DNA of 64,000 nucleotides from Candidatus Aenigmatarchaeota archaeon. Lineage in GTDB: Archaea; Aenigmatarchaeota; Aenigmatarchaeia; GW2011-AR5. Positions 10,894 through 36,829 of the stretch are shown piece by piece; within the stretch, counting starts at the first letter, position 1; each line of letters opens with the position of its first letter. Position numbers and translations under genes: made by a program. The notes under the pieces are model-generated. The model was not told where the DNA came from. It saw only the letters and a program-made list of their open reading frames with translations, and made no database searches. Location: the NCBI GenBank assembly GCA_016187335.1, contig JACPJW010000001.1, positions 224,001 through 288,000 of the forward strand, in the 5' to 3' direction.

Positions 10894-10984
10894 TGGACTG
10901 GTCGGGACTTTCACCAACTTTGCTTCCTCTTTTGATCAAACTTTGGAGCAGCAAAGTTTGCTTTGAACCCGAAGCCTCCTGGCT
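10894..10984 (-). pseudogene. Orphan 3' half of an Ala-type tRNA with an intron at 59/60
   Basis: AGCCAGG-AGGCT-TCGGG-TTCAAA[intron]T-CCCGA-CCAGTCC-A; acceptor strand identical to tRNA-Ala; no 5' half adjacent. Confidence 0.75.
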
Positions 10985-10996
10985 ATAATGTCGCAT

Positions 10997-12379
10997 CTAT
11001 TTCACAAAGCCCTGCTTGATATCGCCGATGTCAAAAAGCAGTACATTGTTTTCCCTGATTCTTTTGCTGAAACTCCTGGCAAAGACGGCATAGTAGTCTT
11101 TTCTGTCTTTTTTGAAAAGCTCAACCTGCTCTGATTTTTTCTTTAAGCCGCTTATTACAGCGTTAGGATCAGCATTGTCTTTCCATTTGCATTCGCAGAA
11201 CAGCATTTCTTTTGTTTTTTTGTTGAAGGCTACCATGTCCATTTCTTCCTGCCTGCTCCACCATCTGCCTATATTTGTGGCGCTGAAAGGGAGCCTGCCC
11301 TTTGCATTGGCTTCTATCAGAAACTCCCTGCATACGCCTTCGAATGCCTTTCCCACAAATGCCGTGAAATTACTCCTTACGCTTTCCGTTACAGGCCCGG
11401 AATTCTCTATTTCCAGATAAGACATGTTAGGGTACACAAAACGGAACCAGAAATTGAAGAAATTGTCATTTATGAAATAAAGGGTCTTCTTGCTTTTCGG
11501 CTTCATCTCTGTGACAGGATTTTCCTTCTTTATGAGCCCCATGCCTTTTTCAAGCACGTTCAGGAAGTAACTGAGCGAGGTCTGCTTTATGCTTATCATG
11601 TCGGCTATCTCATTTGTCTTTGTCCTTCCTTGTGCTATTAGCTTCATTATATTGAAGTATGTCGCAGGATTCGGAAGCTCTGTTCTTATGAGCATATCAG
11701 GCTCGTTGTAAAGCGCGCCTCTTTTTGAAAGTATGCTCGCCTCTATGCTTTTTATCACATCCACCTTCGCATCCGCTTCCAGGAGATATTTTGGCGTCCC
11801 TCCGAATACTGCATAGATTTCCACTAATTTTTCTGCCGGAACAGAAGGGAACCATTCGAACAAATGCCTGAATTTGAGCGGCTCCAGGTCTATCTGGCCT
11901 GTGCGCCTGCCGTAGAGCGGTGCCGAATACTCGAAAAGCTTGTGCATCATTCCTATCGAAGAGCCCATGACAGCAAGGAAAACTCCTGATTTCTTGTGGT
12001 GGCTGTCTATCTGCTTCTGAAGAATCGAGGGTACAGATTTGTTTATAGTCAGGAATCGCTGGAACTCATCAATCACGATAACAGTCCTTTCCTGCATTCC
12101 AAGCATGCGGTCGAAAATCTCGTCCCATGCCGGCTCTCCAATAAAACTCAGTCCGAATTTTTCGTTAAGGTTTCTTGCAAAAATCAGCCTGAGCTCCTTG
12201 TCATCTATGTCAGGCACAAAGAAGTAGAGCGCTTTCTTTCCTGATATGAACTTTTCGATAAGGGCTGTCTTGCCGACACGCCTCCTGCCTATTACTGATA
12301 TGAACCTGAAGCCATCGTTCTTGTGCTCTTTGGCAAGAAACCCCAGCTCGTCCGCCCTGTTTATAAACTTTATTGTCAT
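10997..12379 (-). CDS. Archaeal AAA ATPase with HTH and DUF234/PD-(D/E)XK C-terminus
   Basis: FINRADEL, GRRRVGKT, IDEFQ, GGTP.Y, EMD...ECKW; start moved to MTIKF. Confidence 0.88.
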   Translation of the reverse strand: MTIKFINRADELGFLAKEHKNDGFRFISVIGRRRVGKTALIEKFISGKKALYFFVPDIDDKELRLIFARNLNEKFGLSFIGEPAWDEIFDRMLGMQERTVIVIDEFQRFLTINKSVPSILQKQIDSHHKKSGVFLAVMGSSIGMMHKLFEYSAPLYGRRTGQIDLEPLKFRHLFEWFPSVPAEKLVEIYAVFGGTPKYLLEADAKVDVIKSIEASILSKRGALYNEPDMLIRTELPNPATYFNIMKLIAQGRTKTNEIADMISIKQTSLSYFLNVLEKGMGLIKKENPVTEMKPKSKKTLYFINDNFFNFWFRFVYPNMSYLEIENSGPVTESVRSNFTAFVGKAFEGVCREFLIEANAKGRLPFSATNIGRWWSRQEEMDMVAFNKKTKEMLFCECKWKDNADPNAVISGLKKKSEQVELFKKDRKDYYAVFARSFSKRIRENNVLLFDIGDIKQGFVK

Positions 12380-12431
12380 GACAATTATTGTGATGACAAT
12401 AATATTTAAAGCTATCGTACTCCCGGCGAGC

Positions 12432-12547
12432 ATGTGAAAAGAACTTTGTCTCCACCACATAAATGTGGTGGCTTCATTATTACCAAAGTTCTTTTACACG
12501 CCACATTCCACCTGTATTACCACCGTTTAAAAACGGTGGAATGTGAG
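12432..12547. repeat. Two nested long hairpins, with a core resembling IS200/IS605 subterminal palindromes
   Basis: Minus strand GAAGCCACCACATTTATGTGGTGGAG inside AAAAGAACTTTG...CAAAGTTCTTTT; CCACCGTTTTTAAACGGTGG inside CACATTCCACC...GGTGGAATGTG. Confidence 0.5.
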
Positions 12548-12555
12548 TGTTTCAA

Positions 12556-12856
12556 TGGACTGGCTGGGATTTTCAGAACTTTTCACCGTTTTCCTCGAAG
12601 AACATCAGTTCTTCGGGATCTCGGAGAACTATCGTTCTCCACAGATGATCAAACTTTTGTGAAAAGTTCGTTTGAACCCAGAGCCTCCTGCTATCTTGTT
12701 TGCCTCTTTTGATCGAACTTTGGAGTAGCAAAGTTCGTTGCAAAGCAGGCGATCTTCCTTCTCCGAACCCTTTTTGCTTCGCAAAAATCGTTCACGGAAA
12801 AACTTCTTTCCGTAGACGCTTTCTTTTTAAGAAAGGGTCTGTTGATCTACCAGCCC
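12556..12856 (-). tRNA. tRNA-Ala(UGC) with three introns (D-loop, 37/38, 59/60)
   Basis: Exons GGGCTGGTAGATCAAC / GGAAGATCGCCTGCTTTGCA / AGCAGGAGGCTCTGGGTTCAAA / TCCCAGCCAGTCCA; G3-U70; BHB TTCA/TGAA at the T-loop intron. Confidence 0.92.
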
Positions 12857-13019
12857 GTGGCTAAAGCATAATATCCTAGGGCTTAAATAAATTGGTTTAA
12901 AATTGCCTGAAACAGCATCATATCCTTTAAATATTCACCCAATACATAGGACATCCTATAAACTTTCTTAAAAGAGAATTAGAGAATTTAACCAAAGAAT
13001 CTGTATTCAAAGTGATACC

Positions 13020-14300
13020 ATGGTAAAACGCCTCATTGTTCATTTCAAGGACGTGTTTTCCCCGCTGCGGCTGCGCGACCTGCGGCTTTACTGGCTGGGG
13101 CAGGTCATATCGCTCATCGGGATATGGATGCAGGCGACCGCGCAGTCGTGGGTCGTCTGGACGCTCACTGGAAGCACCGTGGACCTGGGCGCGGTCGCGA
13201 TGCTGGGCCTGCTGCCTTTCTTGCTCCTCGCGCCCTTCACTGGTTCCATCGCCGACAGGGTCGACAGGAGGAAGCTGCTGATACTGACGCAACTGGTGGC
13301 GATGACGCTCGCCTTCGTCCTTGCCTGGCTTGTCCATACCGATGCCGCCCAGCTCTGGCACATATACGTCCTCGCGCTGCTGCTTGGTATTGTGAACTCC
13401 TTTGACAGCATCGCCAACCAGGCTTTTGTCAGTGACCTGGCCGGCAGCGAGGTCAGGAAGGCCGTTATCATAAACAACATGCTGTTCCAGCTGAGCAGGA
13501 TGCTGGGCCCTGCGCTGGCCGGCATTGTCATCGCGGCGGCCGGAGCGGCTGCGGCTTTCTGGTTCAACGGCGTGACGTTCCTGGCGGTCATAGCAAGCCT
13601 GCTCGCGATAAAGGCCCACCAGCAGGTGCGCGTCGAAAGCAAGGGAAAGGCATTGGACGATTTCAAGGAAGGGCTGCGCTTCCTGCGAAGCAGCCCGGTG
13701 CTGACGGGCCTTGTATGGATAGTGACCATAACGACTTTCTTCGTCTTCCCGACAATGTTCATCCTGCCCGCTGTAGCGACTAATGTGCTCGGGGGCGACG
13801 CTTCCACTTTGGGCCTTTTAATGGCTTCTTCCGGCGCGGGAGCGCTCGTCGGATCGTTGTTCATAGCGCCGCTCGCGCAGAAGATAAGAAGAACCGGCCT
13901 GATGCTGGCCGCGGCTTCTGTATGGGCCGGGCTGTGGCTGACCGTGTTCTCTTTCAGCAATATTCTCCAGGTATCCATGATAGCATTGTTCTTTAGCAGC
14001 CTGCTGATACCTGTAATATTCACGACAGCCAACGCGCTGCTGCAGCTCATGGCGCCGCCTCATATGAAGGCGAGGATGATAAGCATCCTCATGCTGATAG
14101 GCCTCGGCATGCAGCCTGTGGCTTCGTACCTGCTGGGATATTCCGCAGCCATTCTGGGCATCCAGGCAGCGCTGCGGCTCAACGGATTATTGATGATAAC
14201 AGCTATTGCCGCCCTTCTTTTCTTTGATTCTGAACTGCGGAAATGGGAAACTGAAATCACGGTCGAGGGAAAAGGACATCCTGCCGCGGCAGGGCATTAA
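13020..14300 (+). CDS. MFS transporter (12 TMS)
   Basis: GSIADRVDRRKL motif A; many hydrophobic helices. Confidence 0.93.
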   Translation: MVKRLIVHFKDVFSPLRLRDLRLYWLGQVISLIGIWMQATAQSWVVWTLTGSTVDLGAVAMLGLLPFLLLAPFTGSIADRVDRRKLLILTQLVAMTLAFVLAWLVHTDAAQLWHIYVLALLLGIVNSFDSIANQAFVSDLAGSEVRKAVIINNMLFQLSRMLGPALAGIVIAAAGAAAAFWFNGVTFLAVIASLLAIKAHQQVRVESKGKALDDFKEGLRFLRSSPVLTGLVWIVTITTFFVFPTMFILPAVATNVLGGDASTLGLLMASSGAGALVGSLFIAPLAQKIRRTGLMLAAASVWAGLWLTVFSFSNILQVSMIALFFSSLLIPVIFTTANALLQLMAPPHMKARMISILMLIGLGMQPVASYLLGYSAAILGIQAALRLNGLLMITAIAALLFFDSELRKWETEITVEGKGHPAAAGH

Positions 14301-14376
14301 GTTTTGAAAATTCTATATTTGTATTTTTGCTTCCATAATTTTTACGTGATTGCATGGCAAAATTCCGCGGCGGTGA

Positions 14377-15189
14377 TTGAAAATGAACATTCCTTCTGTT
14401 GTTCTGAACAGCGGCGCAAAGATGCCGCAGCTCGGCTTGGGAACATGGGACCTCCGCGGCTCTGAATGCGTTCGTGCCGTGAGGGATGCGCTGGACGCGG
14501 GTTACCGCCACGTAGACACCGCCTCGCTCTACGGCAATGAAAAGGAAGTGGGTTTAGCAGTGAAAAAAAGCGGCGTGCCGAGAAAGGATTTGTTCATTAC
14601 CAGCAAGATATGGAACGATGAGCATGACGACCCCGAAGCGGCCCTGGAGGCGTCGCTGAAGCGGCTTGGAACGGATTACGTTGATTTGTACCTGATACAC
14701 TGGCCTGTTCCAGAAAGGAACGAAACGTGGCGCGCGTTTGAGGGCTTTCTTAAAGACAAACGCTGCAGGTCCGTAGGCGTGAGCAATTTCACGGTGCGGC
14801 ATCTTAAGGAATTATTGAATAAAAGAAACGTTGTCCCCGCCGTAAACCAGATAGAATTTTCCCCGTTCCTTTACCAGAAAGACATCCTGCAGTTCTGCAA
14901 CGAAAGTAAAATACGGCTCGTGGCGTCAAGCCCGCTCACGCATGGCAGGAAGCTGAAGCATGCCGTGATTGCTGCTCTGGCGAAGAAATACAGCAAGACG
15001 CCTGCTCAGATAGTGCTGCGCTGGCACATCCAGCACGGCATCGTGCCGATACCGAAATCAAAAAGCAGGGAACGGATAGAAGAGAACGCAGCGATTTTTG
15101 ACTTTTCAATCAGCAGGGAGGACATGGCTTTGCTGGACGGCTTGGACGAGGGCTACCACTATTATGCCGACCCGGGCGACGAGCCTTGA
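14377..15189 (+). CDS. Aldo/keto reductase
   Basis: GLGTW, GYRHVDTA..YGNE, FITSK, DLYLIHWP, GVSNF, IPKS. Confidence 0.95.
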   Translation: MKMNIPSVVLNSGAKMPQLGLGTWDLRGSECVRAVRDALDAGYRHVDTASLYGNEKEVGLAVKKSGVPRKDLFITSKIWNDEHDDPEAALEASLKRLGTDYVDLYLIHWPVPERNETWRAFEGFLKDKRCRSVGVSNFTVRHLKELLNKRNVVPAVNQIEFSPFLYQKDILQFCNESKIRLVASSPLTHGRKLKHAVIAALAKKYSKTPAQIVLRWHIQHGIVPIPKSKSRERIEENAAIFDFSISREDMALLDGLDEGYHYYADPGDEP

Positions 15190-15794
15190 GGGCTGCATCT
15201 TGTATATCCTCCGCTACCGAAAAGGGTTTTAATCCTGTTTTTCAAGAAAGTTGCATGAAAAAGCAGGTTCTGAAGCGCATGCCTGAAGAAACGCAGAAAG
15301 TGCATGCCGCTGATTTTGAAAAGGAAAAGAAGAAACTGGAACAGAGCTTCAAAAAGAAAGAAATGCCCTTCCGCCTGTTCTGGGTGAAGTGAAAATATCT
15401 ACTATTTCTGTTAAAACCTGTAGATAGCTTCGGCTAAATCGTATCGATAAAAAAATCCAGCTTTCTTTGCGTTTTGGAAAAAATAGCGCGCAAAGGTACA
15501 GGTAGTTCCGGGTTACGTCCCGGAACTCACGGAGCCGCAGCTCCGATGAATTGGCATTCTATCTCATGGCCCTCTTTTGATGAAACTTTTTTGAAAAGTT
15601 TCAGAGGAAAGCACACTGACTGTCGCAGAACCCTTTCGGATTCTTTTGATAAAACTTTTCTTGAAAGAAAAGTTTTTAGGAGGTGATCCAGCCGCACGTT
15701 CCCGTACGGCTACCTTGTTACGACTTAGCCCTCCTTGCAGACAATTGATTCGACTTATTCAGCATAAGCCTCACCAAAAGTCCACTCGGATGGC

Positions 15795-15826
<32 letters not shown>

Positions 15827-15840
15827 CATTCAGCGAAAGA

Positions 15841-16030
15841 TTCCACGATTATGAGATCATCATAGTGCTGCTTCTACTCGACCAAAGACATCCGCCCATA
15901 CTTTTAATCACCAGACCGCTACGGATTTCTTTCCGTAGACGCTTTCTTTTTAAGAAAGGGTCTTCATAGTCAAGCACTTCTTCTGTCTTTGATTTTGTAG
16001 CGCCAAAAAATCATTTGGATCTCACATCCA
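15841..16030 (-). other. 16S intron, 190 nt, near E. coli position 1363
   Basis: BHB with central helix TCAT/GTGG; splicing restores GCGAAGGTCATCATCTTTCGC. Confidence 0.8.
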
Positions 16031-16389
16031 TGATGACCTTCGCTTACTAGGGATTCCGGCTTCACGTGGGCGAATTGCAGCCCACGATCTGAACTAGGCG
16101 CCGGTTTGAGAGATTGGCTTCACCTCACGGTGTTGCATCCCATTGTCCGACGCATTGTAGGCCGCGTGTAGCCCCGGAAATTTAGGCCATACTGACCTGC
16201 CGTAGACCGCTCCTTCCTCTGGCTTAGCGCCAGCGGTCCCGCTAAAGTGCATGCCCTGCGTACAGGACATTCGCAACTAGCGGCACGGGTCTCACTCGTT
16301 TCGTGACTTAACACGACACTTCACAGCACGAGCTGACGACGGCCATGCAGCACTTCTCAGTTTGTTAGGTAACCCCTTTAGAGTGACCC

Positions 16390-16962
16390 TCATTCTACTG
16401 TCTTCCCGGGTGAGGTCTCCAGAGAGGAATCCTCATATTTCCAAAGAATGCGTTTGCCTTCATTCTTTCTTGCCACACTACGCGCGGATTCAAGGTCGCG
16501 CAATGTTTCCCTTATTGTGCTTGGCATCAATCTTAATCCAAGGCACAATTCTCCTATGCTCCACCACTTATCATTTTTTCTGATCAACGCAACTATCTTC
16601 TCTTTCGTTGAAGCTTTGTTGCGCATGAAGCCGCCTTTCATCCCTTCTCTTTCCAAGAGAAGCTTCGCCCATTGATTCTTAATCGGTTCCGCAAATTCCC
16701 CTGCAATGGAATAAATCTCCCTGAAAGCATTCCTATGCAGCTTGAAGCCGATGTTTTCTCTTTTGACGAACTTTTTGCTTGCCCAGCCATGCGCTTTGCA
16801 GACCTCAAAAATAGTGTTAAGCTGATTTCTGTTTCTGCTTGACTGAACAAGCACAGGCGACTCTTCAGCTATAAAGCTGAATTCAAACTCGATTAGTGGA
16901 AGGAGTATAGAAGCTGTAAGTTTTTGCCTTTCTTTGCTCGCTCGTAAACACTTATCATCCAT
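16390..16962 (-). CDS. Intron-encoded divergent LAGLIDADG-like protein with C-terminal wHTH; no stop codon inside the intron
   Basis: ASILLPLIEFEFSF resembles the LAGLIDADG helix; WSIGELCLGLRLMPSTIRETLRDLE HTH; reading frame runs into the exon. Confidence 0.6.
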   Translation of the reverse strand: MDDKCLRASKERQKLTASILLPLIEFEFSFIAEESPVLVQSSRNRNQLNTIFEVCKAHGWASKKFVKRENIGFKLHRNAFREIYSIAGEFAEPIKNQWAKLLLEREGMKGGFMRNKASTKEKIVALIRKNDKWWSIGELCLGLRLMPSTIRETLRDLESARSVARKNEGKRILWKYEDSSLETSPGKTVE

Positions 16963-17015
16963 AGTACTGTATACTTTGGATGATTTATTGGTTTCCGTAC
17001 TCGAGTATTCCTCTT
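16417..17015 (-). mobile_element. 16S intron, 599 nt, at E. coli 977/978, ORF-containing
   Basis: BHB CCAG/CTGG, outer helix AGAGGAAT/ATTCCTCT; splicing restores CAACGCCAGGAACCTCACC. Confidence 0.9.
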
Positions 17016-17035
17016 TCCTGGCGTTGAATCCAATT

Positions 17036-17075
17036 TTCGGCCCAAGCCAATGATATACGTTTCACTGAACTCGGT
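17036..17075 (-). other. 16S intron, 40 nt, at 957/958
   Basis: BHB CGGT/GCCG; splicing restores GCGGTTTAATTGG. Confidence 0.85.
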
Positions 17076-17114
17076 AAACCGCAGCCTCCACCCCTGGTAG
17101 TGCTCCCCCGCCAA

Positions 17115-17726
17115 TTAGGGGAAAGTAATCCCATCATTTAGCAGCTTCAATCTGAGCTGCTTATCCTTGTGCCAACTTCCGATGTTTTTGCAGAAGTATA
17201 GAAGATTGTTCTTCCTTGTCAGCCTGAATTCCCAGACATTACCGCAAAAGGTAATGTTTGTTGGCTGGCAACTTTGATCAATCAAAACCTGTCTAATGAA
17301 TTCCAAAGATTCCCTGTTTTTCTGGCTGAACGAGATGTATTTCTGTTTCGCTGTATCTGGTTTCTTTGGAAGTCCTCCTTCTGCATCAAAGAATCCTTTC
17401 AAATAGTGAATTTGAATTTTCACTTTCTGTTCCTTTATGCATTTTGGAGTATCCCAGAATTCCTGCGGTGTTTCGAAATCGGATATATCGAGAATTTTTT
17501 CAACATAGCTTCTTCCGTTAATCCTCAGTATTTCCGTTCCGTTTGCATGTTTTGTTATGGTGCCGCGAGCTTCAAACTCTTTATGGAAAAGAGTTTGCAA
17601 AAGGCGTAACCATGATGTCTCTCTTTGTGCTATTTTAATTTCGTAGTTTTTTCCTTTCCTGACATCTATGGATGCGTCTCTCATAGCACCTAACAGATAC
17701 GCAAGTTCTGGGCTGACAGGCTTCAC
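17115..17726 (-). CDS. Double-motif LAGLIDADG homing endonuclease
   Basis: LAYLLGAMRDAS and YLKGFFDAEGG motifs; SQKNRESLEFI. Confidence 0.88.
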   Translation of the reverse strand: MKPVSPELAYLLGAMRDASIDVRKGKNYEIKIAQRETSWLRLLQTLFHKEFEARGTITKHANGTEILRINGRSYVEKILDISDFETPQEFWDTPKCIKEQKVKIQIHYLKGFFDAEGGLPKKPDTAKQKYISFSQKNRESLEFIRQVLIDQSCQPTNITFCGNVWEFRLTRKNNLLYFCKNIGSWHKDKQLRLKLLNDGITFP

Positions 17727-17778
17727 TCTATAACTTTGGCAGCAGGGATATTTAAGTGTGGTATCGGGGTTACTTTCT
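17115..17778 (-). mobile_element. 16S intron, 664 nt, at 919, with homing endonuclease gene
   Basis: BHB AGGG/CCCT, outer helix GAAAGTAA/TTACTTTC. Confidence 0.9.
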
Positions 17779-17908
17779 TTCCCTTAAGTTTCAGCCTTGC
17801 GGCCGTAATCCCCAGGCGGCCCGTTTAACGCCTTCGCTTCGGCACCACGGATCCACGAAGGATTCGTGACACCAAACGGGCAACGTTTACAGCTAGGACT
17901 ACCGGGGT

Positions 17909-17990
17909 CTTTAGGACCCTTTTGCGATTTTATTCGCGGTAGCGTGATTTCCGTAGACGCTTTTACGCGCTTGCATGCGTAAAAGGGTCT
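17909..17990 (-). other. 16S intron, 82 nt, at 793/794 (repeat motif A)
   Basis: BHB TTAG/CTAA; splicing restores GGATTAGATACCCC. Confidence 0.88.
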
Positions 17991-18002
17991 ATCTAATCCC
18001 GA

Positions 18003-18036
18003 ATGAACTCGACTAAGATTTTCGTCTTAGTTCGAT
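18003..18036 (-). other. 16S intron, 34 nt, at 781
   Basis: BHB GAGC/GTTC; leaves a 12-nt exon (17991-18002) before the next intron. Confidence 0.75.
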
Positions 18037-18090
18037 TCGCTCCCCTAGCTTTCGTCCCTCACCGTCGGACCCGTTCCAGCCAAGCGCCTT

Positions 18091-18134
18091 ACGTGGAAAC
18101 TTTTCCGTTTTGATTGAATTTTTTGAAAAGTTCA
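18091..18134 (-). other. 16S intron, 44 nt, at 727/728 (repeat motif B)
   Basis: BHB GTGG/CCAC; splicing restores GTGGCGAAGGCG. Confidence 0.88.
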
Positions 18135-18338
18135 CGCCACAGGTGGTCCCCTACGGATTAAAAGATTTTACCCTTACCCGTAGAGTACCCTTGGCCTCTC
18201 CCGGTCCCAAGCCCGATAGTATCTCCAGCAAGCCTTACAGTTTGCTGCAAGATTTCACCAAAGACACATCGAGCCGGCTACGGACGCTTCAGGCCCAATA
18301 AACGTGACTACCCCTCGTGGCGCGGTTATTACCGCGGC

Positions 18339-18389
18339 ATCCAGATCCTTTTCCGTCAACGCTTTTGCGTCTTCAGACGTAAAAGGGTT
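18339..18389 (-). other. 16S intron, 51 nt, at 523/524 (repeat motif A)
   Basis: BHB CCAG/CTGG; splicing restores GCCAGCCGCCGCGG. Confidence 0.88.
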
Positions 18390-18428
18390 GGCTGGCAACC
18401 GTCTTGCCCACCACTTATTCCTCCACCT

Positions 18429-18483
18429 ATGTAATCCTTTCTTCCGTTTCTTTCGCAAGCGTTTTCTTTTCGAAAGAAAAGGC
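18429..18483 (-). other. 16S intron, 55 nt, in the helix 17 loop
   Basis: Relaxed BHB GTAA/TTAC; splicing restores CCACTGTAAAAAGGTGG. Confidence 0.75.
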
Positions 18484-18550
18484 TTTTACAGTGGAGAAAA
18501 GACAGCGCTAAGCGCTGCCACTCAGGGTTCCCTTGTCAGGCTTTCACCCA

Positions 18551-18600
18551 GTTTGCGAACTTTTCAGTTCCGTTTTGATGGAACTTTTCTGAAAAGTTCC
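18551..18600 (-). other. 16S intron, 50 nt, at 374 (repeat motif B)
   Basis: BHB TTGC/GCAA; splicing restores TTTGCAATGGG. Confidence 0.88.
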
Positions 18601-18606
18601 TTGCAA

Positions 18607-18639
<33 letters not shown>

Positions 18640-19339
18640 CGTTCATGTCTCAGAACGCATCTCCGGGCTATCGCTCTCACGACCCGTACGGATTACAGCC
18701 TTGTTGAGCAATTATCTCAACAACAAGCTAATCCGCCGCAGTCCCATCGTTCAGTGCATTGCTGCTTTCAGCGAAGATGCCTTCCAGCAATTATCGCCTA
18801 TCGGGTATTATTCCCACTTTCGCAGGATTATCCCCGTCTGAACGGCAGGTTAACTACGTGTTACTGAGCAGTGCGACGAGGTCTTGCACCTCACGTCTCG
18901 CATGGCTTAGCCGAACCCTGATAAAGGTAGTCTCCGGCGGGATCAACCGGAATTGTGCGGGAAAACACAAACCCTTGTGGTTATGTGTCCCTACCATTTG
19001 ATAGAGTCTTGCCTACCCATACCTTTGTTCACTTGTAAGCATGCTTACCAGCTCATATTTATCATGCAGCGGAAGTGTTTCTTCACGAAAAAGGCTGTTG
19101 CCTTAAAATCCGAAACGACGCCTTGCTGTCATGAATAATCATTTCAGTTTTGACTCATCCGCTTTTTACAGCAGAATGTGCCGCGTAATTATTATCCAGT
19201 CAAAAGCGTTCGTAAGAACTGCTTCGCTTTAACGAGCAAGCCAGCTAGCTAGAAGTATAGTTGCCAAACTATGCCCGTCTCAATACTTTCAAGGCACGAT
19301 TCTTAGAACCGCACCACACCATCAATAAATAAAGAAGGG

Positions 19340-21873: not shown

Positions 21874-21940
21874 TATTTTTGATGTTTTTTGATGTTTTTT
21901 GATTAAACTTTTTTCGAAAAAGTTTAGGAGGTAGAAAAAA

Positions 21941-29477: not shown

Positions 29478-29478
29478 A

Positions 29479-29751: not shown

Positions 29752-29835
29752 GGAATAATGTTGCAGCCGAAAACATAAAAACGGAAGAAAGAATTTGAGG
29801 AGCTGCTCGGGTTGCTTCCAGCGATTGCAGTGAGA

Positions 29836-30135
29836 CTAAGCCTGTTTTCTCTTTTTCCTCTTGATTTTTACCGAGCCGTCTTCAACCTTAACTTCAAGCT
29901 CATCTGCCTTGACGTTTTCTGGCAGCGACATGCTTCGCCTGAATTCTTTCTGGAACGCCTCTTCTTTGTAAAAACCTTTTCTCTTCTCCACTTTCCTTCC
30001 TTTCTTCTCCGCTGAGATATTGATGAAGCCCTTGTCTATTGAGACCTTTATCTCGTCCCTGCTGAATCCCGGCGCCGCTATGTTTATCTCCTCGGGCTTT
30101 TCTTCCCAGTAGAATCTGAACGGCTTCTTTGCCAT
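29836..30135 (-). CDS. Hsp20/alpha-crystallin family protein
   Basis: APGFSRDEIKV...FRRSMSLPENV...DG.VKI. Confidence 0.85.
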   Translation of the reverse strand: MAKKPFRFYWEEKPEEINIAAPGFSRDEIKVSIDKGFINISAEKKGRKVEKRKGFYKEEAFQKEFRRSMSLPENVKADELEVKVEDGSVKIKRKKRKQA

Positions 30136-30229
30136 AAAAACACCAGAAAATATTCTTGAGGATAAAAATAAATTGTTATTTTTGGTCAAACTTTCCTTCT
30201 TTGATTAAACTTTCTTTTAAGAAAGTTTA

Positions 30230-30400
30230 TGCGGGAGACGAGATTCGAACTCGCGAAGCGAATCGTCACCTTTTCCGTGCACGCTTTTGCACAGCAAAAG
30301 GGTGCTAACGCACTACCCGTTTGCGAACCTTCCCTTTTGATTGAACTTTTGGGAAAAGTTCACCTCAAGGTAGCCCCTTTGGCCGCTTGGGTACCCCCGC
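30230..30400 (-). tRNA. tRNA-Leu(GAG) with two introns (37/38 at 30319-30362; variable arm about 30261-30305)
   Basis: GCGGGGG/CTCCCGC-A acceptor; CTACC-TTGAGG..GGTAG anticodon arm; GAGTTCGAATCTC T-arm. Confidence 0.9.
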
Positions 30401-30471
30401 AATGCATTAAAATTATTTAAGCTCCCTTTGGATGCAAAAGTATTTTATGGCAAAATACAAAAGTATGATTA

Positions 30472-30816
30472 ATGAGCGATTTAACCGCTACATTAGAACC
30501 GCCTTATAGGATGAAAGAGCCTGAAAAAAAAATAGAAGCGAAATTCCCGTATGAAACCGTGATTGGGGGCAAAACAGTAACGGTTGTGGGGGGAACAGTG
30601 CTGGGTGAACATGGTGGATACAGAAGGGTAAGATTGTATATAAGAGGGTGGCATGATATTGACTCTCTCGCAGTTATGCATAAAGGTCATACTGGGGAAG
30701 AAACTGTAATTGAAAGATATGTATTAGTACCTGTTCTGACTGTTAACGTATTGCCTGTGCTGCCTGTTGAATGCCCTGTTATTGGAAAATTATACGAACC
30801 TGCTGGCAGAAGATAA
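30472..30816 (+). CDS. Hypothetical protein (AT-richer than neighbours)
   Basis: ORF with upstream TATA-like element; no recognised motif. Confidence 0.5.
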   Translation: MSDLTATLEPPYRMKEPEKKIEAKFPYETVIGGKTVTVVGGTVLGEHGGYRRVRLYIRGWHDIDSLAVMHKGHTGEETVIERYVLVPVLTVNVLPVLPVECPVIGKLYEPAGRR

Positions 30817-30857
30817 AAACATACGTAATAAAAACAGAAATCATGAGCAAATTTTTC

Positions 30858-31001
30858 TCAGCACTTCTCGCACATCGTGCCGCAGTGCATGCCTGATTTG
30901 CTTGATTTGTAGCCGCAGTGCACGCACATGTACATATCCTTCGGCTTCGCTGCCTTTCTTGATGCTTTCCTTGCTTTGGATGCCTTTCTTCTCTTTGCCA
31001 C
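30858..31001 (-). CDS. 47-aa basic Cys-rich microprotein
   Basis: Not in ORF track: MAKRRKASKARKASRKAAKPKDMYMCVHCGYKSSKSGMHCGTMCEKC; SD AGGTGA before the GTG start. Confidence 0.6.
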   Translation of the reverse strand: MAKRRKASKARKASRKAAKPKDMYMCVHCGYKSSKSGMHCGTMCEKC

Positions 31002-31084
31002 CAGAATCACCTTGAAATAAAATTGGAAGAAATCTTCTTAAGCGGGAATTTCAAGGAAAGGTATCACTCGGAAGATGTGAAAAA

Positions 31085-31264
31085 TGCTCCCGCCGGGATT
31101 TGAATGCCCGGATCCTTTCAATCTCTAAAGGATCTCCCGGGTCTCCGGCTTTCTTTGATATCATTACAAAGCGTTTCTGCTTTGCTCTAACCTTTCAAAG
31201 ATCGGCTGATTTTTCATGCCGTCGCGAAAGGCCGGAATCCTTGGCCGGTCTAGACTACGGGAGC
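31085..31264 (-). tRNA. tRNA-Glu(UUC) with two introns (37/38 and 53/54)
   Basis: GCTCCCG/CGGGAGC-A acceptor; CCGGC-CTTTCG..A-GCCGG anticodon arm; BHBs CTTT/AAAG and CCCG/CGGG. Confidence 0.92.
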
Positions 31265-31461
31265 ATTTTTGTCAAAATAACATGCTCTAATATGAATCCA
31301 CGTTTTTAGTCGTGGATTTTTATGTGCATGTTATCTCAGATACGCTGTATTTTATCTACCGTCTAATTCATGGAGAGCGAAGCTCTCCTGAATTTCTCAT
31401 AGGACTTCATGAGAAGTCCTTTGCAGAAAAGACGGTAGTTTTCAACGTATCTGAAGATAAA

Positions 31462-31875
31462 CTATGGAGAAACGTTTTTAATATGCTTGCGGGCGGCCTT
31501 TTTCTTCTTAAGAAGCGCCTCCTGTTTTTGTATGAGCACCTCTTGCTTTTTCATCTTCTTTTTTATCAGTTCCTCCTGCTTTCTGATCCTTTTTTCCATC
31601 AGTTCGGCCCTTTCCTTCAGCCGCTTGGCCGTGATTTCGCCCAGTTCCTGCGTCTTTATCAGGGTCCATGCAGCAAGCATGACAAGAATAGTGACAATGA
31701 AAGCTGTCATGAACTTTGCCGACACGCGCTCGCTGGGGGGTATTATTGTCTCTATCCCGCTTCTCAAGGCATCGTTCCAGAACAAGCCTACGACAAACGC
31801 CAGGGCCGTGATTATGGCGCTGGTAAGCATCCCGTGTATATCGCGCTTCCGTGCATGCTCTTCCAGAGTTGCCAT
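31462..31875 (-). CDS. Small membrane protein (DUF5654-like) with coiled-coil tail
   Basis: ITALAFVVGLFWNDALR; two TM helices. Confidence 0.7.
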   Translation of the reverse strand: MATLEEHARKRDIHGMLTSAIITALAFVVGLFWNDALRSGIETIIPPSERVSAKFMTAFIVTILVMLAAWTLIKTQELGEITAKRLKERAELMEKRIRKQEELIKKKMKKQEVLIQKQEALLKKKKAARKHIKNVSP

Positions 31876-31897
31876 GATTATTCCTTGCGGCGCTTGA

Positions 31898-32491
31898 TTA
31901 AATGCTTTGCTGCCGTACTGCTTCCGTAATGTGAGCCGCGGCTATTCTTGACCAGTTCTCAAGGTTGTGCTTCTTCAGGCCTTCCAGAGGCACCAGTTTT
32001 CCTTCCAGGATGTCTTTTTCCCTGACGGCAATCTTGGAGCTGCCTTTGACAACATAGCATACGCCAAAGTGAACCTTGCCCACGTCGTTGCTGTCGTCGT
32101 TGATAAAGCCAAGGGGTTTCGGGCTGAAGCGGCCGCGATAGCGGACCTCTTCAAAGAATTCCCGTTCCAGGGCCTTGCCAATTATTTCAGAAATTTTGCC
32201 GTCCTCTTCCCTTATATGCCCGCCGACGCCGATGCTGTACAAATTGTGCAGCCTTGCTTCGCCGCTGTTTTTCAGGCGCTGCATCATAAAAACCCTGGTT
32301 CCGTGGATAAAAATAATGTAAGGTATTATCTGCTTCAGTGAAGGGTCTTCTTCTACTTCATCCCTGTTTTTGAAGAAAGCATGCCTTTTGATTTCCTCAA
32401 GCAATTTTTCGTTCCCTTCGTAAGGAATAAACCCCTGGAAATCCTTCTTGAGCAGGAATTTCCTCGGGACGACCATTATTTTTTCTTGCAT
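31898..32491 (-). CDS. NUDIX-fold phosphoesterase
   Basis: EEDPSLKQIIPY, GEARLH..YSIGVGGHI, REFFEE, VGKVHFG; start moved to MQEKI. Confidence 0.85.
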   Translation of the reverse strand: MQEKIMVVPRKFLLKKDFQGFIPYEGNEKLLEEIKRHAFFKNRDEVEEDPSLKQIIPYIIFIHGTRVFMMQRLKNSGEARLHNLYSIGVGGHIREEDGKISEIIGKALEREFFEEVRYRGRFSPKPLGFINDDSNDVGKVHFGVCYVVKGSSKIAVREKDILEGKLVPLEGLKKHNLENWSRIAAAHITEAVRQQSI

Positions 32492-32575
32492 ATTTTTCCG
32501 CCAGCGCTTTATCTCATAATATTTTTCTTTCCGTGCACGCTTTTTTTGATGAAACTTTTTTCTAAAAAGTTTCAA

Positions 32576-32822
32576 TGGGTCGGGGCGGATTCGAACCGCC
32601 GGCTTATGCCTCTCATACCCTTGTGACAGTATTTTCCGCCAGCGCTTTTTTGATCAAACTTTTTCTAAAAGTTTGAAAGGGCTGTAAGGGCATCGTCATC
32701 TGTGGTTCGTAGTCTGCGAACCAAGATCTCAAAGACCTACGGTCTTTGCAGATAACCAATTTCTGAACTTTCTTTTGATAGAACTTTTCTTTCTAAGAAA
32801 AGTTCTCTAGACCACCGACCCA
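32576..32822 (-). tRNA. tRNA-Val(UAC) with three introns (two in the D-arm region, one at 37/38 at 32612-32682)
   Basis: GGGTCGG/CCGACCC-A acceptor; GGCGGTTCGAATCCGCC T-arm; ATGCC/GGCAT stem with one extra C in the anticodon loop. Confidence 0.8.
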
Positions 32823-32824
32823 GT

Positions 32825-33267
32825 CATAAACGCATCGCTAATTTTATTTCTTGCGCTTTTTCTATCCATAAAGGTATGCTACCAAACGAGAACTTTTTAT
32901 TATAGGTATTATCCGAATCCGATGAAACCGGCAAAACCCATTCGAATTTGACATTCTCGTCGCTCAATTTAATAGATGACATTTCGGTAGTAGCTAAATA
33001 AATGACACCTATCCTTATTTTCTTATCCCAAAATTTTGCGATATCGACATAAACAGGATAAATTTCATCTGGAACTATTTTTGTTTCTTCTTCGACTTCA
33101 CGTAAGATCGCCTGTTCAAGCGTTTCACCTAGATGTACTTTCCCGCCCGGCAGGTCCTAGGTGCCGGATTTATGGCCATACTTCTTACCTGCCTGAAGCA
33201 GCAGTACCTTGTCATTCCTGAATATCACGATTTTCTGAAACACGCCGTCTGGGATGAATTCAGCCAT
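32825..33267 (-). pseudogene. NUDIX hydrolase pseudogene
   Basis: TAG at the Trp position of WDLPGG plus a 1-nt frameshift before VHLGETLEQAILREVEEET. Confidence 0.8.
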
Positions 33268-33269
33268 GC

Positions 33270-33830
33270 TTATTCCTCGTGAAGGTATTTGTCAAGCGGA
33301 TGGTGCTCTTTTTCATAGTATTTCAGTGCTTCCTCTATAATCGAGATGTCCTTGGCTTTGGCGCCGCTGGAGAAAAATTCAACAATGAAAGATGCCGCCT
33401 CGTCCGCGTCCGCGGCGACCTTGTCGCATGTTAGTTTGACAAAGGGATGAATCCAGTCTCTGAATACCTTGCCCATGATTTTCTTTTCATGCCTGTTGAA
33501 GCGTCCTCCTTTAGGCGCTATGCCTATCAGAGGCTTCTTGAAATGCTTTGCTATAAGCATTTCCTGCGAGGCTCCGATGCCAATGTCGTCTGCAAGGTTT
33601 ACAATTACTATGTCTGCGGATTTTATCATGAACGCATCCCTGCCCACAACGAACCGCTCGTTATTGTCGTCAAAATAAGAACCGTCGTGGTATTTCGAAG
33701 GGTCTAGATTGATTATTTCGAAGCCCGTCTTCTCCGTGAGCTTTTTGCATAAGCTGTCACGCCAGTCATGCGCACCTTCTTCCGGCTCTGTTATGCTTCC
33801 TGCGACGTAAATCTTTATTTTTCTTGTCAT
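33270..33830 (-). CDS. Nucleoside 2-deoxyribosyltransferase-like / N-glycosidase
   Basis: IYVAGSI...WR, D..MIKSADIVIVNL, GASQEM. Confidence 0.75.
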   Translation of the reverse strand: MTRKIKIYVAGSITEPEEGAHDWRDSLCKKLTEKTGFEIINLDPSKYHDGSYFDDNNERFVVGRDAFMIKSADIVIVNLADDIGIGASQEMLIAKHFKKPLIGIAPKGGRFNRHEKKIMGKVFRDWIHPFVKLTCDKVAADADEAASFIVEFFSSGAKAKDISIIEEALKYYEKEHHPLDKYLHEE

Positions 33831-34285
33831 AATTCCCTTACCTCGTGTTTTAGCAGCTTTTTCGCGTCCTTGTCGAAATAAAAGCGCCCGTGGAATTTCC
33901 TGCCGCTGAGCATCAGCGGCATCCAGACGGCGTCGTCCGGCCACATGTCCTTGTACGGCACTTTGCTTACTGGAAACCATTTGGGCGCGGCTTCCTTTGT
34001 TTCCTTTTCAATGCCGTCGTAGTCATCGGCAACAAAAACATGGACATGCCAGTTTACGACATCATACTGCCCGAAGAAAAACTCCAGTTCGCCTGCTTTT
34101 CTGGGGTTGTCCGGGACTATGCCTGTTTCTTCCAAAACCTCGCGCGACGCCGCTTCCGCTATATCCTCGTTCATCCCTACCTTGCCGCCGGGGCCGTTCC
34201 ATTTGCCGGCGCCGAAGCCGCGCTTCTTCTGTATCAGCAGCACCTTGCCGGCCTTGATGACGTAGCATAACGTAGCAGTTGTCAT
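33827..34285 (-). CDS. 8-oxo-dGTP diphosphatase-type NUDIX (MTH1-like)
   Basis: KKRGFGAGKWNGPGGK, REVLEETG, MWPDD. Confidence 0.9.
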   Translation of the reverse strand: MTTATLCYVIKAGKVLLIQKKRGFGAGKWNGPGGKVGMNEDIAEAASREVLEETGIVPDNPRKAGELEFFFGQYDVVNWHVHVFVADDYDGIEKETKEAAPKWFPVSKVPYKDMWPDDAVWMPLMLSGRKFHGRFYFDKDAKKLLKHEVREL

Positions 34286-34289
34286 AGCA

Positions 34290-34616
34290 TCACTCCGGTC
34301 TTTTATGGAATCCTCCATCATCAAGCCTGCGATTCACTTTCTCGTATTTTTCCAACAGGATTTTTTCCGGGTCAGCGCCCAGCTCGGAAAGCAGCAGAAA
34401 GCCGAAGGTTATCACGTCGGCTGCTTCTTCCGCAAGGTCTTTGAAAAACTCTTCCTTGCTTATGGGGTCCCCTCTCTTCAGCTTTTTGACATTGTTGAGC
34501 ACCTCGCCCGCTTCCCCGCCCATTGCTATGGAGTAAAATTCCCAGTTGAACGCCTTGTTCTTGTCGTGCTTCCTGTCCCTTTCGTGAGCAATCCTTGCGA
34601 ACTCGTTTATGTGCAT
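34290..34616 (-). CDS. MazG-like NTP pyrophosphohydrolase
   Basis: GEAGEV...KKLKR...EEAADV. Confidence 0.82.
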   Translation of the reverse strand: MHINEFARIAHERDRKHDKNKAFNWEFYSIAMGGEAGEVLNNVKKLKRGDPISKEEFFKDLAEEAADVITFGFLLLSELGADPEKILLEKYEKVNRRLDDGGFHKRPE

Positions 34617-34617
34617 A

Positions 34618-35466
34618 TCAGACCACACTCCCAAGCCATTTTAGCACCGCTGCGCTTAATTCCTTTTCCCTGCCTTCAAAGCTGTGGTTGGCGCCTTTGA
34701 TTATTTCCCATGCAAATTTTCCGGACCTGGTCTTGCCGGCAAGTATTTCCATATAAGTTTTAACGGGCTTTACTGCGTACTCTTCCTTTGAGCCGAAGAC
34801 GGCAAGCATCGGTATCTTGATTTTGGAAAATATTTTCAGGCCGGAGTCGTAATTGAACAGCTGTGCTTCCGTGTTTTCAGGGTCTGCAAAACTCAGGAAC
34901 CGCTTGGGTGCGAAGCCCCAGAATTCTTTCAAAAGAACTTCTTTACCAGTCATCTTTTTTGCCTTTTTTACAATCTTATCGAAACCCTTTCCTGCCTGCT
35001 TTCTTGCTATGTTGTAATCATCGGCAGGCGCAAGAAGAACCAGTGCCTTCACATTCTTGTCCTTGGTTTTGTATTGATAGAAAGTTATCTTCTGGCATCC
35101 CGTGCTGTGCCCCATTAAGATGATATTTTCATATCCAAGATCTTGCACAGCCTTGACCGAGCCCTTTATGTCGTGTATGCAGTCTTCAAACCTTTCCTTT
35201 GCCGTGCCGAAATACAGGCTTTTTTTGCTGCCTTTTTTGTCAAAACGAAAAACTACTCCCAGTCCCCGGTTACTGGGTAGAAAAAGGTCAAAATTATTTT
35301 TCTTTATTTCATTTACCATGTCTTCGGTTATTGACCATGCAAAGAAACTGTCTGTCATCCCGAATACGTTTATGATTACATTCTTCGTTTTCCTGCCTGA
35401 TTTGAACAGCAAACCCGACAATGCAAGACCGTCCGACGCGTAAAACTTCACGAGTTCTGCTTTCAT
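34618..35466 (-). CDS. Alpha/beta hydrolase (DUF1749-like)
   Basis: GHSTG nucleophile elbow, GSKEEY, GANHSF. Confidence 0.85.
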   Translation of the reverse strand: MKAELVKFYASDGLALSGLLFKSGRKTKNVIINVFGMTDSFFAWSITEDMVNEIKKNNFDLFLPSNRGLGVVFRFDKKGSKKSLYFGTAKERFEDCIHDIKGSVKAVQDLGYENIILMGHSTGCQKITFYQYKTKDKNVKALVLLAPADDYNIARKQAGKGFDKIVKKAKKMTGKEVLLKEFWGFAPKRFLSFADPENTEAQLFNYDSGLKIFSKIKIPMLAVFGSKEEYAVKPVKTYMEILAGKTRSGKFAWEIIKGANHSFEGREKELSAAVLKWLGSVV

Positions 35467-35469
35467 GAG

Positions 35470-35670
35470 CGCTGGGAGAGGGAATTTCCCGACCCTTTCC
35501 ATAATATTTTCTTTTCCGTCGACGCTTTTCTTTCCAAAAGAAAAGGGTCGCTTTGAACCCTCGCGGGCTTTCGCCCACAGGATGTTTACAAGCCTTTCCG
35601 CCAGCGCTTTTCACGTTAGCAAAAAGGGCTGTAGCAATCCTGCGCCGTAACCAGGCTTGGCTATCCCAGC
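35470..35670 (-). tRNA. tRNA-Ser(GCU) with two introns (37/38 at 35584-35631; 59/60)
   Basis: GCTGGGA/TCCCAGC-G acceptor; CAGGA-TTGCTA..A-TCCTG anticodon arm; long variable arm GGGCGAAAGCCC. Confidence 0.92.
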
Positions 35671-35771
35671 TTCTAACCTCATTTCCTTCTTAATATTTTT
35701 AAAGAGGCTTTGTGACACGACTTTTAAGCAAAAACAGCCAGACATCTTTATATTCATGTTAAGCGTATATT

Positions 35772-36086
35772 ATGCAAGGTGATGGCATGGCCATAAACGT
35801 GAAGAGCTATTCCGAATTGACCCGCAAAGATGTTTTTACTGACAAGGGCGTTTACGCCGGCAAGGTCGTTGACGTTGGTCTTGACCTGGAAAGGTTCCGG
35901 GTGCGCTCCCTGGTCGTTGACGCCGTGCGCGGCTCGTTTCTGGCTAATTTGGTAGGCGACAAGAAAGGCGTCGTGATTCCTTTCACGATGGTCAGGAGCG
36001 TCGGCGACATCGTGCTGATAAAGCACATACAGCCGATGATGGAAGAAGAGCAGCCTGCAGCAGCAGAAGCAACGGCAAGGGCTTAA
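35772..36086 (+). CDS. PRC-barrel domain protein
   Basis: KDVFTDKG.YAGKVVDV...IPFTMVRSVGDIVLI. Confidence 0.88.
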   Translation: MQGDGMAINVKSYSELTRKDVFTDKGVYAGKVVDVGLDLERFRVRSLVVDAVRGSFLANLVGDKKGVVIPFTMVRSVGDIVLIKHIQPMMEEEQPAAAEATARA

Positions 36087-36217
36087 GTTTTTTCTTTGAC
36101 CTGATTTATCTATGCGTATCGCAGGTTACGTCCAGATCTGCGTAGGTTCCCCCCAGTCTGGGATTTTGCGCTAAAATCATGCTATCTTTTAATACGTTAA
36201 CCAACAAAATATGCACG

Positions 36218-36745
36218 ATGACTAGTTTTCTTCTTTACGGCCGGGGCGGGCAGGGAGTTGAAACGGCTGTGCGGATTCTGGGCAATGCCCTGCATTCTTC
36301 TGGCATGAATGTCCAGGACTTCGTTCTTTCCGGCATGGAGAGGCGCGGCTTCCCTGTGGAAGGTTACGTGAAATCCGAGAAAGTCCCTATAATTTCAAAG
36401 GACGTCGCGAGCCCTGATTTTCTTCTTGTCTTTGATACCACGCTGCCTCTGGACAACATGCTGAAGCAGTGCAACGAAAAGGCTGCTGTAATTTTCAACT
36501 CAAAGGACCATGTAAAGAATCCGCTGCTGAGAAAGCTGCCGGTAAAAACCTATTTTGTGAATGCCAGCGAAATATCCTACAACTACATGAGGGCAATAAT
36601 GCCCAACACCGCCATGCTGGGCGCGCTGGCGAAGATAAACCCGAAAATAACCTCGAAGAGCCTGAAAAACGCGATGCAGCTGCCCATGCAGCAGGAGAAC
36701 TTGAAAGCCTTTGACGAAGGCTACAGGAACCTGAAAAGGAACTAG
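36218..36745 (+). CDS. porG: 2-oxoacid:ferredoxin oxidoreductase gamma-like subunit
   Basis: GRGGQG, ERRGFPV, NTAMLGA. Confidence 0.85.
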   Translation: MTSFLLYGRGGQGVETAVRILGNALHSSGMNVQDFVLSGMERRGFPVEGYVKSEKVPIISKDVASPDFLLVFDTTLPLDNMLKQCNEKAAVIFNSKDHVKNPLLRKLPVKTYFVNASEISYNYMRAIMPNTAMLGALAKINPKITSKSLKNAMQLPMQQENLKAFDEGYRNLKRN

Positions 36746-36829
36746 TGAACTTTTCAGAAAAGTTCAATCAAAACGGTAGAACTTCTCAGAGTTCTATCGT
36801 GCTCGGAATGGACAGGATGCGTGCTTGAT

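Follow-up and report, generated by a model that had tools for sequence, protein, structure and literature searches.

The window analysed here, a stretch of 64,000 nucleotides (nt) from the genome of a Candidatus Aenigmatarchaeota archaeon, carries a 16S rRNA gene and four tRNA genes that are interrupted by introns, together with two short hairpin modules, A and B, that recur in many of these introns and also stand free between genes. The window corresponds to C2:224001-288000, C2 being a contig label of this genome (G000; assembly of 1.01 Mb in two contigs, 47% GC, 91% complete); G001, G004, G033 and the like denote the genomes of relatives, and coordinates without the C2 prefix are those of the window. 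In our searches, B is an AACTTT..AAAGTT hairpin followed by NN-ATCAAAA, and A reads CCCTTT-hairpin-AAAGCG-N4-CGGAAA. All module counts given below are based on such sequence patterns, of which the looser versions require the 5' arm.

The one gene recovered by an Rfam search of the window is the 16S rRNA gene (15678..18953, minus strand), whose alignment to RF01959 (1072 bits, model positions 1-1478 over 3276 nt) accommodates ~1800 extra nt. These represent ten introns totalling ~1796 nt, with lengths of 50, ~55, 51, 44, 33, 80, 662, ~40, 598 and 183 nt and with limits set from the Rfam alignment and from comparison with 14 relatives. A B-type intron of 50 nt follows E. coli position 374 (18551..18600, minus strand, as are all the 16S introns); it adopts a canonical hBHBh' layout and is absent in G012. 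Next comes an intron of ~55 nt with a degenerate A module (18429..18484; 57 inserted nt in the Rfam alignment), and then an A-type intron of 51 nt after position 523 (18339..18389), which falls within the universal 515-533 primer site and is cleanly absent (0 nt) in G010, G011, G012, G029 and G033. The E. coli positions of the 50-nt and 51-nt introns are our own reading of the numbering. Near position 727, a B-type intron of 44 nt forms a canonical BHB (bulge-helix-bulge) with central helix GTGG/CCAC (18091..18134); it is absent in G004, G010 and G027, and a metagenome contig skips exactly these 44 nt. An A-type intron of 80 nt near position 794 (17910..17989) is absent in most relatives, and the intron that G028 has at this site is A-like and bears a compensatory GCC..GGG change. 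The 183-nt intron near position 1363 (15847..16029) encloses an A module at 15930-15962 and shares 37 identical nt with the D-loop intron of tRNA-Ala. No module is present in the introns of 33, ~40 and 598 nt, and the 662-nt intron contains a LAGLIDADG open reading frame (ORF). The two large introns hold ORFs at 16390-16962 and 17115-17726 (both minus strand), one of which encodes a LAGLIDADG_3 domain (E = 1.5e-9) and the other a protein of 190 residues with no Pfam match. Outside the window, the 23S rRNA gene (C2:208273-212555, minus strand) extends over 4283 nt, compared with 2987 positions in the model, and has at least one B-type and at least one A-type intron.

When presented with the unspliced window, ARAGORN reported 0 tRNAs; after removal of 11 inserts, it called tRNA-Val(TAC), tRNA-Leu(GAG), tRNA-Ser(GCT) and tRNA-Ala(TGC). 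Together with the Rfam 16S match, these calls verify the host genes of the insertion sites that a preliminary description of this DNA had listed: the 16S positions and the D-loop, 37/38, variable-arm and 59/60 positions of tRNAs. Ten of the 11 tRNA introns carry an A or B module, in one case a degenerate B. All four genes lie on the minus strand. The tRNA-Ala gene (12557..12856), whose spliced product ARAGORN accepts, has three introns: one in the D-loop with A and an inverted A (12840-12759), one at 37/38 with a variant of B that has an 8-nt loop (12738-12693), and one at 59/60 with a degenerate B and other hairpins (12670-12570), which forms a strict BHB. tRNA-Leu (30231..30400) is interrupted twice, at 37/38 by a 44-nt B intron (30362-30319) and in the variable arm by a 43-nt A intron (30304-30262). 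tRNA-Val (32577..32821) contains a B intron in the D-loop (32806-32761), an intron with other hairpins at 21/22 (32752-32700) and, at 37/38, an intron in which B is nested in A (32683-32613), just as first described. In tRNA-Ser (35471..35670), both introns are of A type, at 37/38 (35631-35584) and, with a long tail, at 59/60 (35551-35484); this tail is indeed common to the T-loop intron and the tRNA-Val trailer, as had been noted earlier. Across the whole genome, Rfam tRNA matches exceeded the cut-off at just 12 loci; for this reason we wrote a finder that searches for the acceptor and T arm, which yielded an approximate list of ~40 tRNA loci, most of them 100-340 nt long.

Both modules are strongly enriched over chance. 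In the window, B has 16 matches with at most one mismatch compared with a mean of 0.46 in 100 shuffles, and A has 12 matches compared with 0.92 expected; in neither case does any shuffle reach the observed number, so the possibility raised at the outset, that the motifs are no more frequent than composition-matched hairpins, can be set aside. A copy is present at every coordinate originally assigned to A or B. For B, these are 10930, 12707, 15575, 15644, 18108, 18573, 21897, 30180 (degenerate), 30199, 30335, 32544, 32648 and 32773 on the minus strand and 36759 on the plus strand, plus a degenerate copy at 12645; for A, they are 12807, 15930, 17948, 18350, 30272, 32495, 32528, 32633, 35513 and 35595, all on the minus strand, plus a degenerate copy near 18440-18480. 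Genome-wide, there are 83 exact copies of B (16 plus, 67 minus) and 48 of A, and the looser patterns retrieve ~136 B and ~66 A.

In each module, a 5' arm rich in pyrimidines (X) has its complement in a 3' arm (X'), and the single-stranded tail is conserved, reading ATCAAAA in B and GCG-N4-CGGAAA in A. The stems covary. Among 94 copies of B, the two outer pairs are of Watson-Crick type in 89 and 92 copies and draw on 3-4 pair types, which none of 2000 shuffles reproduced. In 35-37 of 40 full copies of A, the trinucleotide that precedes CCC pairs with the one that follows GCG, a level likewise attained by none of 2000 shuffles; covariation extends to the fourth nucleotide past GCG, and a C-C mismatch is conserved. 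A triple helix in A was considered, but alternative pairings account for the three-way covariation at least as well, and the data do not discriminate between the two. Modules also form tandem arrays in this genome. A third and smaller hairpin module, C (36778-36797, plus strand), has a GACC/GGTC stem around TTCTCAGA and 11 exact cores genome-wide; seven times it stands directly 3' of B, and it is found within tRNA introns as well. A further observation concerns the B variant with the 8-nt loop GCTGCTCC, which at C2:606833-606910, C2:846243, C2:892627 and other loci precedes a conserved GAGRYTNGTGGYGA stretch and, after it, a start codon. This variant may be a 5'-untranslated-region element whose CUCC loop could pair with the GAGG after it.

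The copies inside RNA genes differ in layout from all others. Here, the module is extended by three elements that free copies lack, in this order: another 3' arm (X''), which pairs anew with X, a 4-nt adaptor and a final 2 nt. The adaptor is exactly complementary to exon positions -6 to -3, and together with the exon helix outside it completes a BHB. In the intron at 16S position 374, for example, the inner helix comprises 11 bp, the central helix TTGC/GCAA pairs at four of four positions and the outer helix has 4 bp. Under a strict definition (inner helix of at least 7 pairs, central helix 4/4, outer helix of at least 3), 9 of the 53 copies inside RNA genes have a BHB, compared with 0 of the 149 that are free or flanking. 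The strict hBHBh' sites include 16S-374, 16S-727, a 23S site and T-loop sites, each with an adaptor complementary to its exon. Most other internal copies satisfy a relaxed definition with three of four central pairs; since the relaxed search also matched 61 of 96 free copies and is thus too permissive, we relied on the strict one alone. The BHB layout is therefore specific to copies inside RNA genes, and the earlier proposal that a terminal stem plus local pairing creates the BHB was correct, the local pairing being the 4 nt between adaptor and exon. By their sequences, the introns read as a constant body joined to a site-specific adaptor. The genome encodes both enzymes expected to process such introns, EndA (PF01974, C2:410532-410810, E = 3.8e-28) and RtcB (PF01139, C2:765179-766423, E = 5e-159).

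Elsewhere, modules stand free, often at gene ends. Two free B modules occupy the 3' trailer of the 16S rRNA gene, the first beginning 3 nt past the mature 3' end (15575..15676, minus strand); B and a degenerate second copy directly follow tRNA-Leu (30180..30228, minus strand); and the tRNA-Val trailer holds a free B and then two A tails (32495..32573, minus strand). Between the genes for POR gamma (PF01558) and POR delta (Fer4), B and C lie in sense orientation 2 nt past the stop codon (36748..36797, plus strand). These four groups had already been pointed out in the preliminary description and are real. A further free B, with its tail repeated three times, is antisense to A-type ATPase genes between subunits I and c (21897..21925, minus strand). 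This antisense copy had been taken as the sole exception to a sense orientation throughout; the exception stands, but it is not the only one, as an antisense A arm (12785-12800) forms the inverted pair inside the D-loop intron of tRNA-Ala. With the looser patterns, and judged against the ~40 listed tRNA loci and the coordinates of 16S and 23S, the copies fall into approximate classes of 53 inside RNA genes, 22 within 130 nt of an RNA gene end and the rest free (96 B, 31 A). Orientation is far from the random one that would have spoken against the preliminary proposal: of the copies inside RNA genes, 51 lie in sense and 2 in antisense orientation. Free B copies that stand between co-oriented genes have a sense to antisense ratio of 32:4 in minus-strand contexts and 8:5 in plus-strand contexts, and on top of this sense bias there is an overall excess of B on the minus strand (67:16, exact copies).

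Many free B copies abut coding sequences. Of the 96, 22 begin no more than 2 nt from the stop codon of a same-strand long ORF, compared with 0 in an antisense control, and the stop codon is often part of the B stem. In several cases, the next start codon follows just 2-13 nt past the tail, and B therefore often fills the whole intergenic spacer. B words are the most enriched hexamers upstream of start codons supported by a Shine-Dalgarno sequence. The spacing is suggestive of a promoter, in which the hairpin would serve as BRE/TATA (the archaeal transcription-factor binding sites) with the tail 5-13 nt from the ATG. A terminator role was also considered, but runs of at least five T residues occur in 21 of 96 free copies and 2 of 23 intron copies, which is no clear difference.

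To one side of these groups, another B module with the 8-nt loop (10930..10960, minus strand) occupies the T-loop of a 3' tRNA-Ala-like fragment (10890-10995, minus strand). The T arm and acceptor strand of the fragment are identical to those of the tRNA-Ala gene at 12557-12856, and no matching 5' half is present. The fragment adjoins low-GC stretches (window 1-10000 and 58000-62000; 33-40% compared with 47%), with which it could represent an integrated element bounded by a duplicated tRNA end.

Comparison with relatives reveals turnover of the modules. One relative, G001, is a 56% complete genome of the same genus with a contig syntenic to that of G000. Over the exons, the variable-arm intron (43 nt, A type) and the first part of the trailer, its tRNA-Leu gene is 100% identical to that of G000, yet it lacks the 44-nt B intron at 37/38. 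This unique indel of 44 nt has no duplicated flank. The tRNA-Leu(GAG) genes of four outgroups, G018 and G011 (as called by ARAGORN) and G013 and G034 (as read by eye), likewise have no 37/38 intron; with an empty site in G001 and all four outgroups, the simplest reading is that the intron at 30362-30319 was gained in the G000 lineage. The body of this intron is 98% identical over 44 nt to a D-loop intron in a different tRNA of G005, a member of another genus, where the same body is joined to a different adaptor. It is also close to two T-loop introns of G000, again with other adaptors.

The other RNA genes have changed as well. tRNA-Val of G001 has no B intron in the D-loop, its insert at 21/22 measures 17 nt compared with 53 in G000, and its 37/38 intron is near-identical; the trailer has a full A module where that of G000 has B. 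At 37/38 of tRNA-Ser, the same site holds an A-type intron in G000 and a B-type intron in G001. Several relatives cleanly lack the 16S introns that G000 has at 374, 523, 727 and 794, four other 16S sites are occupied by A-type introns in G033, and free copies differ in orthologous spacers. Occupancy thus differs between relatives for Leu, Val, Ser and 16S, and the preliminary description had named identical occupancy as an outcome that would count against a mobile family. Within G000, tRNA introns, rRNA introns and free copies are connected by identical stretches of 28-43 nt, and 22 pairs of a free copy and an RNA-gene copy share at least 28 identical nt (11 with intron copies and 11 with flank copies). 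Near-identical introns thus occur at different positions of unrelated RNA genes, with occupancy that differs between close relatives, which is the pattern of a transposed intron cluster in the sense of Fujishima et al. 2010. In population data, for which we used assembled Logan contigs of groundwater DNA runs, contigs join chimerically at modules, and the intron-less 16S genes of relatives are seen.

The family extends well beyond this genome. B is present in 25 of 41 relatives of the same order, at tRNA introns, in trailers and after stop codons. A is found in 116 of 301 genomes of the phylum, with 0-41 copies per genome in a distribution that is strongly patchy by family, and reversed-pattern controls are near 0. 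A stricter B pattern searched in one genome per prokaryotic species gave at least 119 loci. Among the 80 matches listed, about half are archaeal by their titles (several DPANN phyla, Methanosarcinales, ANME-1, Methanocellales and Nitrosopumilaceae), with some of these archaeal copies in tRNA introns; the other half of the matches listed belong to intergenic repeat families of Oscillospiraceae, Aminicenantes and Cloacimonadota, where the neighbours are ordinary genes and not insertion sequences (IS elements). These bacterial B-like families may be the same element or a convergent A/T palindrome. In loci L195-L313 of other species, the B core followed by CTTT forms such intergenic repeats in Oscillospiraceae, Aminicenantes and Cloacimonadota and, in a Methanosarcina genome (L308), a tandem array with constant 55-nt spacers; none of these has an Rfam match. 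Scans of viral contigs gave mostly single matches at chance level, and a few that look real. No Rfam 15 family covers the modules, in the window or at eight loci of other taxa.

We interpret A, B and the smaller C as dispersed structured repeats of 25-45 nt that have a free and an intron form, with new introns copied from existing bodies, a reading to which we give a probability of about 0.7. The modules would occupy transcribed non-coding DNA, the free form lying in sense orientation at the 3' ends of ORFs, tRNAs and the 16S rRNA. In the intron form, X'', the 4-nt adaptor and the last 2 nt would complete a BHB with the flanking exon helix, from which EndA and RtcB would then remove the insert from essential RNAs. 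We infer that a new intron arises when an existing body is copied to a new site in an RNA gene, and that just those copies whose adaptor matches the site persist. The copying could proceed by reverse splicing, through recombination or gene conversion among RNA genes, or with the help of a DNA element that acts in trans. A step that takes place at the RNA level or is guided by RNA is favoured by the coincidence of the Leu indel with the exact splice boundaries, by the sense orientation of 51 of 53 internal copies although the hairpin forms either way, and by adaptor-exon pairing at every site; a DNA-level element similar to bacterial repetitive extragenic palindromes (REP) is favoured by its fitting layout, the excess on the minus strand and the degraded relic of a Y1 transposase described below.

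As for the mode of spread, the preliminary description had envisaged a non-coding element that moves via RNA or as a miniature inverted-repeat transposable element (MITE). The structured family, its presence at unrelated intron and free sites and a gain are all borne out; the signature of a MITE is not. The gained Leu intron has no target-site duplication, adaptors complement the exon rather than repeat it, and a search for a cognate enzyme with matching ends, as had been proposed, turned up nothing intact: in the 91%-complete assembly, we detected no transposase (apart from the Y1 remnant), TnpB or reverse transcriptase, and no autonomous transposon with ends that match the modules. The gain without target-site duplication and the lack of a transposase argue against a classical MITE, and the lack of a reverse transcriptase argues against a retro-element.

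Several points weigh against the copying of bodies into new sites. The missing mobility enzymes are one. Orthologous introns of G000 and G001 are 100% identical, compared with 70-79% for neighbouring protein genes, and the sequence of the modules, not just their pairing, is conserved across archaeal phyla, as would be expected if selection acts on the sequence itself or if copies are continually homogenized. The assembled Logan contigs show no empty site or polymorphism within a strain. The class counts are approximate, being based on home-made gene calls and a home-made tRNA list, and the reading offers no origin for a site-specific adaptor upon insertion into a single-copy 16S gene.

Some of these points are shared by what we consider the strongest competitor, a tentative alternative in which the modules are host-functional RNA signals (3'-end signals, terminators, stability hairpins or sites for an RNA-binding protein) kept by selection, and the presence of an intron reflects function, for example the recruitment of a chaperone or processing factor. 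The conserved B core and the 100% identity of orthologous introns would be expected under this alternative, as would the sense bias, the 22 free B copies at same-strand stop codons, the start of B 1-3 nt past the mature 3' ends of tRNA-Val, tRNA-Leu and 16S, and the enrichment of B words ahead of Shine-Dalgarno-supported starts. Function alone accords poorly with a copy number that ranges from 0 to more than 80 in relatives with the same core genes, with presence, absence and A-for-B replacement at one site between congeners, with tandem arrays and with nine antisense copies between co-oriented genes; the T-runs lend no support to a terminator role. Host function and mobility may coexist.

Less probable, and in our view unlikely, is that the modules are REP- or PATE-like single-strand DNA elements moved in trans by a Y1 transposase (IS200/IS605 TnpA or RAYT) that recognizes the hairpin and the short tail, with the copies in RNA genes being rare insertions that happen to be spliceable. 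The resemblance is considerable: the modules are short palindromes with a conserved flanking tail, intergenic, numerous and often tandem, B has a minus-strand excess beyond its sense bias, and the same core forms intergenic repeat families beside ordinary genes in other archaea and some bacteria. An IS200-type Y1 remnant was found at C2:791846-791974 (L326:1847-1975), 1.8 kb from a free B copy; it covers ~45 residues of the C-terminal part and includes a stop codon. This remnant, the best PF01797 match (E = 0.005, 45 residues), is no intact transposase, and no single-copy RAYT gene flanked by repeats was found in the assembly. Moreover, the gained Leu intron lies precisely between the splice boundaries and lacks a fixed target motif, site-specific adaptors would not come with a cut-and-paste element, and 51 of 53 copies in RNA genes are sense even though the hairpin forms in either orientation.

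A more far-reaching reading, in which the introns are mobile at the RNA level, strikes us as quite improbable on present evidence. Here, an excised BHB intron would use its adaptor to pair with a matching exon tetramer that adjoins a helix of another RNA, EndA and RtcB working in reverse would insert it, recombination would fix the product in the DNA, and the free copies at gene ends would serve as a transcribed reservoir. To our knowledge, reverse splicing has not been demonstrated for BHB introns. The analogy is with group II intron retrotransposition, where pairing between a few nucleotides of the intron and the exon immediately before the insertion point likewise recurs at every site; the difference is that splicing here is catalysed by proteins, with no ribozyme and no reverse transcriptase. 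Finally, a spread within RNA genes by gene conversion through common T-loop or anticodon-arm sequence and by co-conversion with the 16S LAGLIDADG homing introns, the free copies being unrelated look-alikes, would account for near-identical T-loop introns at the same site in several tRNAs and draws on the LAGLIDADG protein encoded in one 16S intron and on co-conversion of hairpin and homing introns documented in Pyrobaculum (PMC4496867), but it is highly unlikely given the same bodies at sites without exon homology (16S-374, 16S-727, a 23S site, D-loops, variable arms and 37/38), the 22 pairs of free and RNA-gene copies described above and data suggesting that introns at non-homologous sites are as alike as those at homologous ones.

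The copying of existing bodies into new RNA-gene sites has partial precedents. In Thermoproteales, similar introns at different tRNA positions led to the inference of recent gain by a mechanism called unknown (Fujishima et al. 2010, as summarized in PMC4090602). Set against the features given in that summary, the introns described here are built from a defined hairpin-plus-tail module with a separable site adaptor, they extend to 16S and 23S rRNA, most copies of the modules are free at gene ends, and the host is a member of DPANN, with B reaching many phyla. Thermoproteales also have short hairpin introns in 16S rRNA, BHB mini-introns of less than ~50 nt at loci including 374 and beside LAGLIDADG-encoding introns; those at different loci were too dissimilar to compare (<20% identity; Jay and Inskeep 2015, PMC4496867), whereas five or six of the ten 16S introns of G000 share modules with one another, with tRNA introns and with free copies. 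Bacterial REP, BIME and REPIN sequences, moved by RAYT Y1 transposases, are comparable short palindromes with a conserved tail, intergenic and often just past stop codons, in tens to hundreds of often tandem copies; here, by contrast, no RAYT was found, doublets are mostly direct and not inverted, the sense bias is strong and there is an intron form in essential RNA genes. Similar tRNA introns and short 16S hairpin introns are therefore already known, and we found no paper or Rfam family that describes the modules, the adaptor layout or the sharing among tRNA introns, rRNA introns and free sites.

Introns in the 515-533 site and other universal 16S primer sites, together with tRNA genes that ARAGORN passes over, mean that lineages with such introns are under-detected and under-annotated. 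A 2026 census of Asgard tRNA introns (bioRxiv 10.64898/2026.10.13.758758) reports repeated gains without a route by which the introns came in. The turnover of the modules provides a concrete handle on this open question, the arrival of introns in archaeal tRNA and rRNA genes. The present genome is a tractable case, with a separable adaptor, a gain whose empty site is seen in a congener and four outgroups, the replacement of one module by another and copies outside introns. Were the introns mobile at the RNA level, they would parallel group II intron retrotransposition, with proteins as the catalysts, and one ancient module family would seed tRNA and rRNA introns across DPANN and other archaea.

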